Shown: positions 720 through 51,824 of the stretch, in pieces | Layout of the letters: each line of letters begins with the position of its first letter | Position numbering within the stretch: the first letter of the stretch is position 1 | Source of the DNA: a phage | DNA length: 64,000 nucleotides | Direction: 5' to 3' (one strand) | Assembly (NCBI GenBank): GCA_017676145.1 | Contig: GCA_017676145.1_3628.1 | Made by a program: the position numbers and the translations under genes | The notes under the pieces: model-generated | Told to the model about the DNA's origin: nothing | Databases searched by the model: none | What the model saw: the letters and a program-made list of their open reading frames with translations, nothing else

Positions 720-1193
720 ATGGACTACAGCTACTGCGGAGAAGAAGTACCTTTTAACTACAGCAATCTCACCACGAGCAATCCATATGAGACTCGTCAC
801 GGCACACACATCATTGCTATTGACTTTGATGGAACGTTTAATGCGAGCCCTTTCATCTTCTCCCGCCTTATTAAGGACCTGAAGAAGGAAGGGTGGACAG
901 TCTATCTTGTGACTTTCCGATTCATAACTCAAGACAATGTGGACATCGAATACTGGCGCAAGGAGCTAGATGTTGGAGTGTTTTATACTGGAGGTGTTCA
1001 GAAGGCTGCTTATCTGGCTCAGTTTGATATCTACCCGGACATCTGGGTTGATGATTCTCCAGCTTGCATTCCAGCCAAGAATCAGCTAGAGTTTGCAATG
1101 AAGGAGATCAAGTATAAGTCTGACGCTAAACGTAACGGATGGCCCTTTATTATTGAAGATTACCCAGATCCTGAACCGGAGAAAGAGCCATGA
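720..1193 (+). CDS. HAD-superfamily phosphatase-like protein (possible nucleotidase or 3'-phosphatase)
   Basis: ATG at 720 preceded by gagaagg; N-terminal IIAIDFDGT matches HAD motif I (DxDG[TV]); later WVDDSP acidic motif; function inferred from motifs only. Confidence 0.5.
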   Translation: MDYSYCGEEVPFNYSNLTTSNPYETRHGTHIIAIDFDGTFNASPFIFSRLIKDLKKEGWTVYLVTFRFITQDNVDIEYWRKELDVGVFYTGGVQKAAYLAQFDIYPDIWVDDSPACIPAKNQLEFAMKEIKYKSDAKRNGWPFIIEDYPDPEPEKEP

Positions 1194-1360
1194 AACGAAG
1201 ATACCATTACTTGATGTGGAAGTTATATCAGGGTGCTGCTAAAACTTATCGCACCGTGTTTGGTAATGACAATCACTATATTGTGTTACACCTTGCCGCC
1301 ATTAAGCATCACAATGAGTGGATTCGTGCAATCGTAATAGGTGACAAAGACTTTAAGTAA
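1190..1360 (+). CDS. small hypothetical protein (56 aa), translationally coupled
   Basis: ATG at 1190 overlaps stop of upstream gene (ATGA); uninterrupted 56-codon frame ending TAA 1358-1360; below the ORF-track size cutoff. Confidence 0.3.
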   Translation: MKRRYHYLMWKLYQGAAKTYRTVFGNDNHYIVLHLAAIKHHNEWIRAIVIGDKDFK

Positions 1361-1411
1361 GGTATGCCTCAAAAACGTAATAGTGTGGATTTCTAAATGG
1401 AGACTGATTAA

Positions 1412-1792
1412 ATGTGCAAGTGTAAATCCTATAATTGGAAAGTGAAAGGTGCCAAGCATCAAAATGTTATCGTTGATGTGCCTAAAAAGCTCCGTGACGG
1501 CAAAAAACGTGTGTGCCTTGGTAAGTGCATGGCTAAACCTATCATGAGCTTGTGGGCAGCAGGATTGAAGACTCTAAACTGCTGCTGTGGTCATAACAAA
1601 GATGCTCCAAGCATCATTATCCCAGAGGATGCAGACCCTAAAGCTTATGCCAAAATACTGACTCGCTACCCCAGCACCTTTCTGATCGGAAAATGGTGTC
1701 ACGATGAACTTCAATGGTGGATAGCATACGGCAGCATAGGTACTGCTGTTGGCTTTCCAGCTTTGTCAGAGCGCTACGTCAAAGTGTCATAA
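1412..1792 (+). CDS. Cys-rich hypothetical protein (126 aa)
   Basis: ORF with GGAG RBS upstream; CxC...CxxxC...CCCGH cysteine pattern suggests metal binding; no family assigned. Confidence 0.5.
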   Translation: MCKCKSYNWKVKGAKHQNVIVDVPKKLRDGKKRVCLGKCMAKPIMSLWAAGLKTLNCCCGHNKDAPSIIIPEDADPKAYAKILTRYPSTFLIGKWCHDELQWWIAYGSIGTAVGFPALSERYVKVS

Positions 1793-1955
1793 TCGATTTT
1801 AAGGCCTCAAACGAGGCCTGTGCCTTCATAAACTTCCTACCTATGTGCGATTACCCTTCTGAATAAAATACCCTCTCAAATTGCTTAAAATTAAGCTTGA
1901 CACTAACACCAGATTTATATATGATTATCTCACCAACCCAACAGAGGAGATTGTC

Positions 1956-45481: not shown

Positions 45482-47038
45482 TTAATTTTCCATGTTAGAT
45501 ATGGAGTTATCTCTGGTTGATGACATCTTAGAAGTGCCGTTGCCAGTGGATCCTGCAGCCATTCCATCACCAGCTCTACTGATGTCCTGGCCCAAGAGCT
45601 TCATTAGCTCTTCCTGATCCATGTCCTCGTCAAATCTTTCATCAAACCCGCCTACTTCAAGAATCTTATTAATTACTGCAGGAGTTTTTGGCAAGTAACC
45701 TACAGCACCGATCCTCTGGACAAACTTGGAGAAGCTCTCCATGTCCACTTCTTCAATCAGACCAGGTTTCAGTTTAGGCATATCATCATCTTCAAGGATG
45801 ATACCATTCAATGCCAGAAGCTGTGGAATAAGATCTTTATTGAAGGCCTCAGTGATAATATCTATATCACGCTGAACAAAATGACCATGGATAGATTGTT
45901 TTGACTCAGACAGCGAGAAAGATCCAACGTTATCGTTACCGAGGTTAATAAAGCCAGCACCGAAACGGTCAAGAATCGCCTTCTTACGGGCATCAATCAA
46001 ATCTTTAGTGGAATACTGCTTACCCATGCCGTCAACCCCCTTCAGGGTCATGGAGTAAAGCTCTTTACCAGACTTATCTCTATCAGACGGAAGTATAAAG
46101 AAACTTTGCTCCCCGCTATGGGCATTTGCTGCGTCAAGCATAAGATCTGCAACCATTCTCCCTTCCATTGAATTCGGGTCAATGCTGGCCTTGTTCAGAA
46201 TATTGGAAGGAATTTTCAGCTCAAGCACACCACCAAGGTCTTTGGAGCAGCCAACAACCTCAAGGTTTTCAATCAGAACTTTCTCACGGAAAGATCTGTA
46301 GCAACCTATCATTGGTGACACACCTGCAGGGTTAGATTCTGTTCCTGACAGGGTCATAAGCATAAGCTTTTTAGCAGGGATGAAAATTTCAGGCTCATTA
46401 AAGCCTTTTGAAGGCATTGCAGCAAGAGGTCCAGCCCAGCGTGCATTCTGCGTGTTTAGAAATGCATTAGGTGATTGATAAATACCTGTCAGTGTTCTAC
46501 TATTCTTGTCAAAGACAAACGGCTCTGATCTTGACAAACTGGCCTGAGGTCGAAATGCAATTTTATCAATAAGAAGCATCCCGGCGTATTTACCTTCTTT
46601 CTCTCTGCGGTATACTTTCTCAAACAGTGAAAAACCATACTCGTTAAAGGTAGCTGCGCTTCTTGCAATATCTCGAAGAGTTTGTTGGTTTGCCAAATTA
46701 CGTAAAGAATACTCTATAAGCTCGGCAGCTTTCTTAGAGTCTTCACTTTTAACATTATAAAGGATCTTAAAATCATTGAATGCTTTCGTGATGAAAACAT
46801 ATTTTGTATCTAAGGCAGTAGCAACTGTGGAATCACATTTCATAGTCTCCACTGTAGCAATCAGCTGAGGCCAACGCAATTCCTCAACCATCATAGATTG
46901 TGATTCTGCCATAATTTGGGAAAGTGCGCCAGAACCGATCTCACTCATACGAACATTATGAGTTGGTGCGCCTGCGTTCCCAGATTTATTCACAGTTTTG
47001 GCTGTGGCGTTGTGTTTCCTGCGGTTCTTTTTGGACAC
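45482..47038 (-). CDS. portal protein (putative)
   Basis: 518 aa gene immediately downstream of terminase large subunit. Confidence 0.55.
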   Translation of the reverse strand: MSKKNRRKHNATAKTVNKSGNAGAPTHNVRMSEIGSGALSQIMAESQSMMVEELRWPQLIATVETMKCDSTVATALDTKYVFITKAFNDFKILYNVKSEDSKKAAELIEYSLRNLANQQTLRDIARSAATFNEYGFSLFEKVYRREKEGKYAGMLLIDKIAFRPQASLSRSEPFVFDKNSRTLTGIYQSPNAFLNTQNARWAGPLAAMPSKGFNEPEIFIPAKKLMLMTLSGTESNPAGVSPMIGCYRSFREKVLIENLEVVGCSKDLGGVLELKIPSNILNKASIDPNSMEGRMVADLMLDAANAHSGEQSFFILPSDRDKSGKELYSMTLKGVDGMGKQYSTKDLIDARKKAILDRFGAGFINLGNDNVGSFSLSESKQSIHGHFVQRDIDIITEAFNKDLIPQLLALNGIILEDDDMPKLKPGLIEEVDMESFSKFVQRIGAVGYLPKTPAVINKILEVGGFDERFDEDMDQEELMKLLGQDISRAGDGMAAGSTGNGTSKMSSTRDNSISNMEN

Positions 47039-47140
47039 AAGCTTTACCCCTCAAAACAGTATAACAAAATAGCCCTCGTGTTAGAGGGCTAGTATCTCCG
47101 ATTACTCTATTCTACCACATCTAATTAAGATTGGCAACAC

Positions 47141-47920
47141 TTAGATAAAACGCTTGAACATAGAAGGTGATGAGATTGATGGAATCACACAAGGAAGTGC
47201 TACCTCCTCTTTCTCCAGGAAATTAATCGCAGAAGCCACACAGTCGGCCCAGTCGTCTTTTCTGTTAAATGTTGATCTTTCCCCGTTGAATTTTTCAAGT
47301 TCAGTCAGAAATGCTTCCAGAGTATCAGGATGGAAACTGGATTTTACAATCCTCACCATTCCTTGTTGGGCAAGATTGGCAAAAGGTGAGAACCTTGTTA
47401 GTTTAGATTTGTTGGAAGGCATTGGATCTTCTTCAACCCTAAACCCTTCGGCGAGTAAGGATCTGGAGGAGGTTAAGAACTCACTCTTACCTGCCTGACC
47501 TGGGTCCACAGAGAATACGATTATACAATCATCACCATCAAACTGCGCCTGTTTCCTGATGATCACATCTCGTTCACCAGCCTTTTTACAGAACTTACCT
47601 TCCAGACCTGTGGAATATCTCCCGTCATCCACGTTCTCAGGACAATAATCACCGGACAGGTAATAAAAGCCGTCGCTATCTTTACTTACCTTAACACTGG
47701 CGGTAAAGTCAGGAAATTTATTACCGGAAGTTCTCTCGGTTCCTGCCTTATCCCATGCCCTACAAGATACTGATCCAAGGGGTACTCTATCGGCATCACG
47801 AAGGAAAGATCTTTGAAAATAGTTTGCACCCTCAGGCTTTGCAAACCAGTTACCATGAAGAAGCTGAGCTTTTTCCAGTTCCGGCAGACCTTCAAGGAAA
47901 GCAAGGTATTCGGGGTTGTC
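47141..47920 (-). CDS. terminase large subunit, exon 3 (nuclease domain); 5' boundary approximate (+/-30 nt)
   Basis: Frame is open upstream of the listed 47632 start back to a stop at 47948-47950, reading ...DNPEYLAFLEGLPELEKAQLLHGNWF...RAWDKAG...; continues terminase after intron 2. Confidence 0.65.
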   Translation of the reverse strand, partial: DNPEYLAFLEGLPELEKAQLLHGNWFAKPEGANYFQRSFLRDADRVPLGSVSCRAWDKAGTERTSGNKFPDFTASVKVSKDSDGFYYLSGDYCPENVDDGRYSTGLEGKFCKKAGERDVIIRKQAQFDGDDCIIVFSVDPGQAGKSEFLTSSRSLLAEGFRVEEDPMPSNKSKLTRFSPFANLAQQGMVRIVKSSFHPDTLEAFLTELEKFNGERSTFNRKDDWADCVASAINFLEKEEVALPCVIPSISSPSMFKRFI

Positions 47921-48923
47921 TCTTAAGCAGACAGGATTATCGAATCCTTATATTCAAAGGTGGTCGCAACACCACCTTCCGCACCTTTACGTGCTGCTGC
48001 ATGTTACCATGCAGAGTAGACTATATCACCACCCATCTCAGGGTGCTTCGCTTTTCGAGCGCCATAAGCTTGCGCCCTACTCCCTCTCGGGATAGTCGTT
48101 GAACTACATTACCAATCGTAATTGTTTGAAATATAGGTGTAAGTCTTACGATCTTTTATTCCTTTAACAACACTAAAACTTACTCCCCACTTCTTAGCTA
48201 TTTTATTTACACACAAAACCCTGTCGCTAAGATCCTCGCAGATACCTATTATCTTGTGCTCACTTATCCTATTAGAGGTTGGCACTTTTCTAAAGTTAAA
48301 CTCTTTAGAAATATCTGGGTATACTGAGCCATTCTTTATACCACTTACAAGTGGTTGATTGACACCAAACATTTCACAAATGTCTTTTACCCTTGCACCT
48401 TGCTCTAACAGCCTACATATTTCAAGAGCAGTGGCATCATCTAGGGACCTGTATCTATTGATATAGTCCTTTTTAAGTCCCATTTCATGAGCGTGATGTG
48501 TGTTTTCCTCAGGCGTTGTCCACTCAAGGTTCCATGCGGCGTTATTCAACTTATTACCATCCAGGTGGTTTACTTGAGTTTTCACGCTGGGATTATCATT
48601 ATCAACAAAAGTCATAGCAATCACTCTGTGGACTAGCACTTGGAACTTTTTACCGCCCTCGCACAAAGTTACCATAGCATAGCCAGTCTTTTTCTGCACA
48701 TTAGGATGGAGGAATTTATTAGAATACAGACTGTAAATTCTTCCATCGTATGTAGCACAATAATGATTGTAACCTAAAAAGCCTAAATTTTTCATTTCAA
48801 ACATCTCCCTACTACAGGTTCGGAAGGGTAATTATAGCTGCTGATTGTCCGTTTAGCAATCGGATTTTCCAGCAATTAACGAAGTTATTCGACGTGCATT
48901 TCTGCACGAAGCCACTATCATTT
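47921..48923 (-). mobile_element. group I intron 2 in terminase large subunit gene, carrying an HNH homing endonuclease ORF; ends approximate
   Basis: Minus-strand core elements P AATTGCTGGAAAA (48866-48878), Q AATCAGCAGC (48837-48846), R GTTCAACGACTA (48083-48094), S GATATAGTC (48019-48027) in canonical order; in-frame stop right after the exon; ORF between Q and R. Confidence 0.75.
48109..48804 (-). CDS. intron-encoded HNH homing endonuclease (231 aa)
   Basis: NHLDGNKLNNAAWNLEWTTPEEN HNH motif; located inside intron 2 between Q and R elements. Confidence 0.8.
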   Translation of the reverse strand: MFEMKNLGFLGYNHYCATYDGRIYSLYSNKFLHPNVQKKTGYAMVTLCEGGKKFQVLVHRVIAMTFVDNDNPSVKTQVNHLDGNKLNNAAWNLEWTTPEENTHHAHEMGLKKDYINRYRSLDDATALEICRLLEQGARVKDICEMFGVNQPLVSGIKNGSVYPDISKEFNFRKVPTSNRISEHKIIGICEDLSDRVLCVNKIAKKWGVSFSVVKGIKDRKTYTYISNNYDW

Positions 48924-49241
48924 AATGGTTGCGCCTATAAACGAGAATGACAACGGTCTTGGCTTAATCTCCACACCTAGTCCGTTAACCGTGGTGTATT
49001 TCTCTATTAACTCCTCTTTAGAGTCTCCCCAGATAAATTCACCGTCGCGCCGGATAAAATATCTTTTCTTACCACATTTCTCCGGATCTGGATACCCTTC
49101 ATCGTCCAACCACCACCTAACCAGTTTGGCAAGCATGTGTTCTGAGTCGGGGTTACAGCTGATAACCATTCTTGATGGATACTTTGACTGAGATCGCAGA
49201 CGAGACATTAGATAGTCTATCTGCTCCCATTCGAATTGCGT
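48924..49241 (-). CDS. terminase large subunit, exon 2; boundaries approximate
   Basis: In-frame segment ...(T)QFEWEQIDYLMSRLRSQ...VISCNPDSEHMLAKL...; bounded upstream by intron 1 and downstream by a stop at the start of intron 2. Confidence 0.6.
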
Positions 49242-49560
49242 CGTTTATGTTCAGGCAAGGTCGCTAGTCTTGCCCCGCCATTTTCAGGCAGCTGCATGTC
49301 TCCATGCAGACCAGACTATATCTTATAAGCTATAACAACAGCTTACCCTCCCGTTTCGAATCGCTTGATTCTACGTCTTTCGACTAGTCGTTGAACGTTC
49401 ATCCTCTCGGATGCTTCGCTGCGGATTATCTAAATCAACACTCTGTTACCATACCTTCGATCTCTCTTCGAAGCCTCTATTATGTTACCATAACAGGTTG
49501 GTGGTGTTAATAATAAAGATTTCCCCGCAATTAGGGAGGTTTTACGAGAGCTACAAATTA
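49242..49560 (-). mobile_element. group I intron 1 in terminase large subunit gene (no ORF)
   Basis: Minus-strand P AATTGCGGGGAA (49521-49532), Q AATCCGCAGC (49418-49427), R GTTCAACGACTA (49385-49396), S GATATAGTC (49316-49324); exon ends GGT followed by TAA, as in T4 td-type introns. Confidence 0.75.
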
Positions 49561-49986
49561 ACCCTCATCGAAGCAAACCATGGTGTACTCAAGCCCTTGA
49601 TGGTTAAGCTTATCTTGGACATACTCCATGTGGCAGTATTTTACAACGGCCCCTTTTTTGCTCCTGTCCCACTTGCCAGTGCTCGGATCAAACCGTGGAA
49701 AAATAAACTTATGATCCTTCTCTCTGAACTTTGGTTTAATGTTTTCAGGCAGATCACTGTAAATAGCTACTGCTTTAGGCCATAGACCTCCTTCACCCTC
49801 CAGCTGCGGGGTTGTTCTTCGGAACATAACCACAGAGCTGTGTGGGTCATCAATAATTTTAAGTGGCATTAGCTGCAAGAGGAACGACTTGCCAGAACCG
49901 GCTGCACCTCCGATCACCAAAATATCTGCATCGTTCTCAAGGATCATCTTCTGCTTTTCAGAACACGGTCCGTAAATCTTAGACAT
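49561..49986 (-). CDS. terminase large subunit, exon 1 (ATPase domain)
   Basis: Walker A GGAAGSGKS and Walker B MVCFDEG; start ATG overlaps the o-spanin stop (TAATG). Confidence 0.75.
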
Positions 49987-50273
49987 TAACCTCTCTCCTT
50001 TGGAAACAGTGTTCTTATATAGTCTTGCAAAATGATCAATTTAGCTCTATCATTACTACAAGACAGGTTATTATCCCTCATAATGCCAGAATTCACCGCA
50101 TCTGGCGCACCTTTCTTCAAAGGGATAGCTTTAGCAGGTGGTTTCATAGCACCCTCGGGAGGTTTAACAATCAACCTTCCTACATCCGGAGGGTCAATCT
50201 TATATTCTTTTTCGACACTTGTCGCACATCCGCACAGCAGTAAGCAAGCAACTAACAATACGGTGGCTCTCAT
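49986..50273 (-). CDS. o-spanin (Rz1-like outer-membrane lipoprotein)
   Basis: Signal peptide with lipobox-like LLLCGC, Pro-rich mature region, 95 aa; 4-nt overlap with upstream i-spanin gene. Confidence 0.6.
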   Translation of the reverse strand: MRATVLLVACLLLCGCATSVEKEYKIDPPDVGRLIVKPPEGAMKPPAKAIPLKKGAPDAVNSGIMRDNNLSCSNDRAKLIILQDYIRTLFPKERG

Positions 50274-51329: not shown

Positions 51330-51335
51330 AAAAAG

Positions 51336-51440
51336 GTGCTAGGTGATGGAATCGAACCACCTATGTATTCAACGACTACCTCGTCTATTTTCAGGATTAA
51401 AAATCCTCGCCCTTGCCAAAGGGCTTACCTAGCGCAATAT
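51336..51440 (-). ncRNA. tRNA-like element, non-canonical (pseudo-tRNA or small stable RNA)
   Basis: Has 7-bp acceptor-like stem GCTAGGT/ACCTAGC, D-like arm GCCC/GGGC and T-arm GGTGG-TTCGATT-CCATC, but no 7-nt anticodon loop and ~30 nt extra between anticodon-like and T arms; CCA not fully encoded. Confidence 0.35.
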
Positions 51441-51531: not shown

Positions 51532-51622
51532 TGGCGGAGAGTAATGGAATCGAACCATCATCGAGTCATCCTCAACGGGACGGTTTTCAAGACCGCTTGA
51601 GCACCATTGCTCCCTACCCTCC
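51532..51622 (-). tRNA. tRNA-Ser (anticodon UGA), type II with long variable arm
   Basis: Acceptor GGAGGGT/ACTCTCC, anticodon arm GCGGT-CTTGAAA-ACCGT nearly identical to E. coli tRNA-Ser(UGA) as recalled, ~20-nt variable arm, discriminator G, encoded CCA. Confidence 0.75.
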
Positions 51623-51736: not shown

Positions 51737-51824
51737 TGGTGGTGAGTGATGGAGTCGAACCACCCGAATCGCAATGATAACAGATTTACAGTCTGCCCCG
51801 CTACCCCTACGGAATTAACTCACC
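51737..51824 (-). tRNA. tRNA-Tyr (anticodon GUA), type II
   Basis: Acceptor GGTGAGT/ACTCACC, anticodon stem CAGA/TCTG with loop CTGTAAA, long variable arm, T-arm GGTGG-TTCGACT-CCATC, encoded CCA. Confidence 0.75.

Follow-up and report, generated by a model that had tools for sequence, protein, structure and literature searches.

Introns that interrupt the large terminase subunit gene (terL) of phages have been described before. In Lactobacillus phage LL-H a group I intron lies in the large terminase gene (Mikkonen and Alatossava 1995, as cited in PMC3606486), and in Pectobacterium phage CB7 (Certrevirus, Vequintavirinae) a terL intron called group I was shown by RT-PCR to be spliced. The opinion of the first-pass annotation of this DNA, that self-splicing introns are uncommon in a packaging gene, is therefore overstated. 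The closest described system is that of Escherichia phage rV5, whose GenBank record (DQ832317 / NC_011041) gives terL as a three-piece join, 'ORF64ABC', with an HNH gene inside. Kropinski et al. 2013 (Virol J 10:76; PMC3606486) include a section 'Introns in terminase' and thank D. Shub for help with locating the intron; neither a structure nor an intron class is given there, and no splicing experiment is reported. Moreover, the terL genes of the BASEL phages RudolfGeigy and JohannBauhin are annotated as joins of three and two pieces, respectively. Intron 1, with which we are mainly concerned, is thus real and already known, having been annotated and published for rV5 in 2013. The details that we did not find in the cited sources are a helix-level model, the affinity to subgroup IA and td, the three allelic states with their rough frequencies and the association of the intron with a GGT/GGC dimorphism.

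The window analysed here is a stretch of 64,000 nt whose sequence identifies its source as an rV5-like coliphage of the genus Vequintavirus. Positions 47000-50100 show 96.7% identity to rV5 (DQ832317) and are similar to more than 120 other Vequintavirus genomes. In the window terL is broken twice, by two introns (Table 1). The locus shares with rV5 the three-exon join, the HNH gene in the second intron and the same first intron at the same site (97.5% identity over 319 nt), from which it is set apart by a small number of substitutions, among them a U-A/G-C swap in P8 that is compensatory. LL-H and CB7 likewise have an intervening sequence in the large terminase gene, and the terL intron of CB7 differs in carrying an HNH gene. 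Eighteen records of 'Campylobacter phage' (MG0656xx; UNVERIFIED; host C. jejuni) are also 96-97% identical to this terL region; they are classified as Vequintavirus, and the C. jejuni host label looks doubtful. Upstream of the lysis and terminase genes lies a tRNA cluster with a 99-nt tRNA-like gene (51335-51433, minus strand), which ARAGORN reports as 'tRNA-???' with a four-base anticodon (atcc) and which matches the Rfam tRNA model weakly (35.5 bits). The calls for neighbouring tRNAs differ, with Rfam giving 51740-51824 and ARAGORN a tRNA-Ser at 51532-51622.

Table 1. Coordinates of terL, its two introns and the elements of intron 1 (positions in the window unless another genome is named)
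Feature	Position	Strand	Description
terL exon 1	49561..49986	-	Codons 1-142; Walker A GGAAGSGKS; Walker B VCFDE; last codon GGT
Intron 1	49242..49560	-	ORF-less group I intron, 319 nt; opens UAA (in-frame stop); omega-G at 49242
P1	49546..49566	-	Exon GAGGGU + intron UA (49566..49559) with guide UAGCUCUC (49553..49546)
P element	49532..49521	-	AATTGCGGGGAA; P4 partner of Q
P3			CCUCCC / GGGAGG
P4			P + Q elements
P5 and ~85-nt P5 extension	49428..49520	-	Insertion relative to the consensus of the Rfam model; folded by MFE
Q element	49427..49418	-	AATCCGCAGC; P4 partner of P
P6 / P6a			Present
R element	49396..49385	-	GTTCAACGACTA; 3' GACUA (49389..49385) pairs with UAGUC of S to form P7
P7			GACUA / UAGUC
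P7.1 and P7.2	49358..49384	-	GUC-GAAA-GAC and GAAUC-AAGC-GAUUC; between P7 and P3'
P8	49325..49346	-	AAGCUGU-UGUU-AUAGCUU; 9 pairs, one compensatory change
S element	49322..49314	-	GATATAGTC; 3' strand of P7
P9, P9.1 and P9.2	49254..49309	-	Hairpins; P9 with GAGA loop
terL exon 2	48925..49241	-	317 nt; TQFEWEQ...SFIGAT-I
Intron 2	47946..48924	-	Group I intron, 979 nt; endonuclease ORF between Q and R
HNH homing-endonuclease gene	48109..48804	-	231 aa; Pfam HNH_3 + HTH; 'HNH homing endonuclease' in the rV5 annotation
terL exon 3	47141..47945	-	End of ATPase domain and RNaseH-like nuclease domain; stop codon included
Intrinsic terminator 3' of terL	47070..47091	-	Also in the rV5 record as Rho-independent terminator
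883-nt form of intron 1	HdK5 (MK373780) 1041-1923		Also in 241Ecol014PP, JES2013, DrSchubert and others

The first-pass annotation had started from an apparent 142-aa ATPase ORF that stops right after VCFDEG. This ORF is present at 49986..49558 on the minus strand, with a C-terminus reading ...MVCFDEG and a GGT codon directly before TAA. As had also been proposed, the terminase frame is taken up again at 49241 (ACG CAA TTC, encoding TQF). The 5′ end of exon 2 has no start codon, its first ATG being found at 49208, 11 codons in. Joining the three exons of Table 1, with both introns removed precisely, restores a continuous ORF of 1548 nt that encodes a TerL of 515 aa. The uninterrupted terL genes of EduardKellenberger, FV3, phita32 and 10C2 are also 1548 nt in length, and the spliced product is identical to the EduardKellenberger TerL at 515/515 residues. 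In the spliced protein Pfam Terminase_6N matches residues 25-294 (E 4.6e-20), with both junctions inside the match, and Terminase_6C matches residues 394-489 (E 2.7e-6). The product therefore has what is expected of a large terminase subunit, namely an ATPase at the N-terminus, bearing the Walker A and B motifs, and a C-terminal RNaseH-like nuclease. The proposal of one intron in terL held for intron 1, yet it covered half of the arrangement, as a second group I intron is situated 317 nt downstream.

The boundaries of intron 1 can be read from a natural allele. Phage ECML-10 lacks exactly 49560..49242 and reads GATGAGGGC/ACGCAGTTC, i.e. GATGAGGGC/ACGCAG. Because this intron-less allele fixes the junctions, intron 1 is 319 nt long and runs from the U of UAA to G49242; the bounds first put forward, 49242-49560, were exact. 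G49242 is the last base missing from the intron-less allele, as expected of the terminal guanosine of a group I intron. Among the sequences at the intron ends, magaca and C2 have CATGAACG in place of CATAAACG. P10 is weak, with no more than 3 bp by eye in either candidate register, and does not decide the 3′ site. The sequence ...AAACG/ACG/CAA offers two in-frame Gs, with a P10 of ~3 bp (by eye) for either, and the true 3′ splice site might be sought at the next G, 49239, giving VCFDEG/QFEW and a protein one residue shorter. However, the Thr codon is present in every intron-less allele (GGC ACG CAG), and with Thr143 included the 515-aa product matches the uninterrupted protein at 100% identity. 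We therefore rejected G49239, which is scarcely credible as the splice site, and place the end of the intron at G49242. Within these boundaries no ORF of at least 20 aa lies wholly inside intron 1 on the coding strand, and the first reading of the intron as one without an ORF was thus correct. The 319-nt copy accordingly lacks the homing endonuclease gene that would be expected of a mobile intron.

A scan of the whole window against Rfam returned a single group I intron hit. It is to RF00028, the model that the first-pass annotation had suggested as a check, and lies at 49570..49292 on the minus strand, covering the full model (1-253 of 253) with 85.2 bits, compared with a gathering score of 50 bits (E 2.8e-20 for the whole 64-kb window). 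A full-model match of this score means that the P/Q/R/S pattern is not due to chance, and all four elements were found in canonical order on the coding strand at the positions originally assigned to them. The rV5-type copy of intron 1 in RudolfGeigy scored 84.0 bits with the same model. Pairing was then assessed in an alignment of nine 319-nt copies (the window, rV5, RudolfGeigy, JohannBauhin, HMD-6, JEP1, magaca, Mangalyan and C2), using a structure of 99 pairs, the P7 pseudoknot among them, that was drawn by hand from the window's own sequence. In P1 a U49561-G49551 wobble marks the 5′ splice site, as seen in the cmscan alignment, in the minimum free energy (MFE) fold and among the variants, and 8/8 pairs are invariant in the nine copies. 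All pairs of P4, P7 and the enclosing P3 are likewise standard and invariant among the nine. The P5 extension branches at a three-way junction into two hairpins, one with a GUAA tetraloop and the other with a 7-nt loop. An unconstrained MFE fold recovers P1, P3, P4, P5, P6a, P7.2, P8, P9, P9.1 and P9.2. P2 is absent or outside the RF00028 alignment model.

The T4 td intron belongs to subgroup IA2, and P7.1/P7.2 between P7 and P3′ are the signature of subgroup IA. Intron 1 shares this insertion with td, and the P7.1/P7.2 segment itself shows partial similarity to td. Moreover, 84% identity to a T4-like td intron is seen over the 3′ 79 nt, from S through P9.2. In both genes the exon ends in GGT and the intron opens with TAA as an in-frame stop; the comparison with td made at the outset is borne out, since the T4-like td exon ends ...TTGGGT and is followed by TAATTGAGG. 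We therefore assign intron 1 to subgroup IA, as td-like, on the presence of P7.1/P7.2 and the 84% identity of the 3′ domain. The similarity to td, together with the class of td itself, suggests IA2 rather than IA1 or IA3. There are also differences between the two introns: td carries I-TevI (GIY-YIG) between the 5′ core elements and R, whereas intron 1 is ORF-less; the ~85-nt branched P5 extension of intron 1 does not align to td; and the host genes are td and terL, respectively.

The fold is maintained among the natural copies. Over 99 pairs and nine variants, 99.9% of cells are standard pairs. Four pairs show compensatory double changes (alignment columns 60/133, 62/131, 77/88 and 229/238), three of them (60/133, 62/131 and 77/88) in the P5 region, and in P8 the window has U-A where the other variants have G-C. 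At pair 77/88 a C-U mismatch occurs in Mangalyan. All other substitutions either fall in loops or allow wobble pairing, and two tetraloop changes stay GNRA (GAAA/GAGA and GAGA/GAAA), the P7.1 loop being GAAA or GAGA among the variants. By comparison, control structures slid by 1-3 columns gave 0-1 compensatory pairs with 33-40% of cells paired, and four compensatory pairs were reached in 1 of 500 shuffles. The compensatory substitutions show that the structure of intron 1 is under selection, within a set of close relatives whose mean column identity is 99%. These data also bear on whether the intron of the window might be splicing-defective, in which case terL would be a pseudogene and the genome defective or mis-assembled. 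The window copy does have some substitutions that set it apart from the other variants, e.g. at intron positions 119, 221 and 230. However, the change in P8 that is private to the window copy is compensatory (U-A for G-C), and the others permit wobble pairing or affect unpaired bases. All core elements are the same as in rV5, a viable phage, and the undamaged exons specify the same protein as a functional homologue. A defective intron is hence very improbable. With the RF00028 match, the exact intron-less allele, the 515/515 spliced product and the compensatory changes all in agreement, the group I intron first proposed to split terL after Walker B is upheld, and we conclude with high confidence that 49560..49242 on the minus strand is a functional, ORF-less, self-splicing group I intron of subgroup IA, similar to that of T4 td. 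In keeping with this conclusion, rV5 and the BASEL phages with the same arrangement are propagated isolates, and terL must therefore be expressed.

In the literature searched we found neither RNA data nor biochemistry that would document splicing in this phage or in any other Vequintavirus; splicing of intron 1, its chemistry, its occurrence in vivo and the mobility of the intron are what we infer from the sequence. In the proposed mechanism terL would be transcribed as a precursor of exon 1, intron 1, exon 2, intron 2 and exon 3. Intron 1 would fold into P1-P9.2, with the guide UAGCUCUC pairing to the last six exon bases, GAGGGU, and with U49561 in the U-G wobble. A free guanosine bound at P7 would attack after U49561, G49242 would next occupy the guanosine site and the exons would be ligated to GGU/ACG. 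The ligated junction would read ...GATGAGGGT/ACGCAATTC..., restoring the codons for ...VCFDEG/TQFEW..., and with the removal of intron 2 the 515-aa TerL would be obtained. A junction-spanning tryptic peptide of the spliced protein would contain ...VCFDEGTQFEWEQ.... As in td, the intron opens with an in-frame UAA and unspliced RNA would for this reason yield only the 142-aa fragment. Since packaging needs TerL, virion production would depend on the removal of both introns.

The main alternative is that terL is split and never spliced, the fragments being translated separately and assembling after translation, with the intron-like sequence a decayed relic. Genes split in this way exist, for instance NrdA of Aeromonas phage Aeh1, which is split by mobE (as cited in the CB7 paper), and one intervening sequence of CB7 did not splice according to the same paper. 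Many GenBank records also list the pieces as separate 'terminase large subunit' CDSs. Against this, the core of the ribozyme has remained intact and its structure is under selection. Moreover, translation of exon 2 from the ATG at 49208 would drop TQFEWEQIDYL, which adjoins the Walker B catalytic residues, and Walker B would be parted from the rest of a single ATPase fold. The U at position -1 is also strictly kept in intron-bearing alleles only, and it matters only if P1 is used. We consider a permanently split gene very improbable, though less so than a defective intron, and hold to self-splicing of intron 1.

Closely related phages are polymorphic for the presence of intron 1 at a single conserved site. 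When the spliced junction of exons 1 and 2 was used as a 500-nt probe, 120 phage records were matched, some of them RefSeq/GenBank duplicates. The two exon halves lay within one place in 89 records, whilst in 30/120 they were too far apart to join, representing an 883-nt form of the intron. Among the 44 full-coverage matches listed, 12 span ~819 nt (the 319-nt intron) and 32 span ~500 nt (no intron). The intron itself was found at a coverage of at least 80% in 53 records. From these searches we estimate that, of ~120 records, ~66 have an empty site, ~23 carry the 319-nt form and ~30 the 883-nt form, i.e. ~45% bear an intron. Every combination of intron 1 and intron 2 states occurs among the relatives and therefore the two introns move independently.

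The 883-nt form has the same insertion site and the same core as the 319-nt form, with 95-98% identity outside P8. In HdK5 and 241Ecol014PP it has 582 nt in place of window positions 49344..49327, and P8 holds a 591-nt ORF for a 196-aa protein of the Endonuclease_7 family (endonuclease VII-type; Pfam PF02945, E 2.1e-21). This ORF runs from an ATG in the 5′ strand of P8 to a stop codon inside the S element. The 883-nt form differs from the 319-nt form in having a P8 stem of other sequence, GAAUGUGC/GCACAUUC, and thus neither form is a simple deletion of the other. As the ORF splits the core, neither of the HdK5 introns reaches the RF00028 threshold. The 319-nt copy, being without an endonuclease gene, would be unable to home alone. 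The 883-nt sister form probably supplies, or supplied, mobility, and the ORF-less intron may be mobilised in trans by the enzyme of this sister form or be carried along in recombination.

The state of the site is associated with the codon preceding it. Exon 1 ends in GGT in 12/12 intron-bearing alleles and in GGC in 5/5 intact intron-less alleles, a small sample of 17 alleles. Such a dimorphism is consistent with P1 requiring U at -1 and with co-conversion during homing. Position +6 of exon 2 (CAA or CAG) shows a loose association with the state of the intron. We can also speculate, while thinking it unlikely, that the ORF-less intron persists as an immunity device in competition between phages and is not a neutral relic. 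Were this so, an intron at the Walker B site would shield terL from the endonuclease VII-type enzyme of co-infecting Vequintaviruses with the 883-nt form, and the GGT/GGC dimorphism would act as a further barrier, in that P1 would contain C-G and not U-G if a GGC allele acquired the intron in the absence of co-conversion, and no TerL would be made. The Walker B codon of terL would then be a small intron/anti-intron arena that sets which phages can recombine productively. A lesion is found at or next to the intron 1 site in Escherichia phage V18 (NC_041937, ~245-275), consisting of a 9-nt tandem duplication of GGTTTGCTT and a 1-nt deletion. Together these shift the reading frame of terL, for which the V18 record lists two CDSs, and the lesion may stem from misassembly or from the repair of endonuclease cleavage.

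Intron 2 interrupts the conserved ...IGAT/IFDNP... motif. After exon 2 the frame stops at ...SFIGATIK*, and P- and Q-like elements, AATTGCTGGAAA and AATCAGCAGC, come next. Beyond the HNH ORF we found R (GTTCAACGACTA), S (GATATAGTC) and a P9 hairpin, followed by the terminase frame again. In the window this intron gave two RF00028 half-matches of 29.4 and 23.5 bits, below the threshold because the 696-nt ORF splits the core; a natural ORF-less intron 2 in RudolfGeigy scores 95.6 bits. Phage JohannBauhin lacks exactly intron 2, and this allele combined with the U(-1) and omega-G rules gives the boundaries in Table 1. Within intron 2 there is a sigma-70-like promoter match (48831-48859, minus strand; TTGCTA-17-TATAAT, 10/12), which overlaps Q and lies 27 nt upstream of the start of the HNH ORF; the number of such matches in the region is no higher than in shuffles. 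Intron ORFs with transcription of their own are described for T4, and this promoter, as a consensus match, could provide the same for the HNH gene.

Gene callers report terL as two or three 'terminase' fragments, an error present in many deposited Vequintavirus genomes. The exons are given as separate CDSs named 'terminase large subunit', 'DNA packaging protein' or hypothetical in HdK5, 241Ecol014PP, HMD-6, JEP1, magaca and Mangalyan. The Mangalyan record additionally places, inside intron 1, a hypothetical protein of 26 aa and its RBS, and in the ECML-10 record terL is unannotated apart from the HNH gene. Exact junctions are needed if TerL is to be used as a phylogenetic marker, and also for phage-therapy dossiers. 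Intron 1 opens no new question and its value is mainly one of annotation. It is a further case of homing-type elements residing at those catalytic motifs of an essential gene that are most conserved. Moreover, the site is found in three states (empty, ORF-less intron, and intron with endonuclease gene) within one genus, which makes it a convenient natural system for the cycle of intron gain and loss and for interference between co-infecting phages.

Lastly, relatives of intron 1 were found in other phages. Positions 130-316 of the intron, its 3′ two-thirds, are 72.7% identical to Pseudomonas phage fnug (MT133560) 1501-1703, an unannotated stretch between the homologues of PHIKZ071 and PHIKZ073, which are adjacent CDSs in phiKZ-like Pseudomonas phages. 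Weaker matches to the core were obtained in Felix O1-like nrdD, in T4 nrdB and in Bacillus and Staphylococcus phages. Together, the matches in phiKZ-like, Felix O1-like, T4, Bacillus and Staphylococcus phages indicate that this intron lineage is widely spread.
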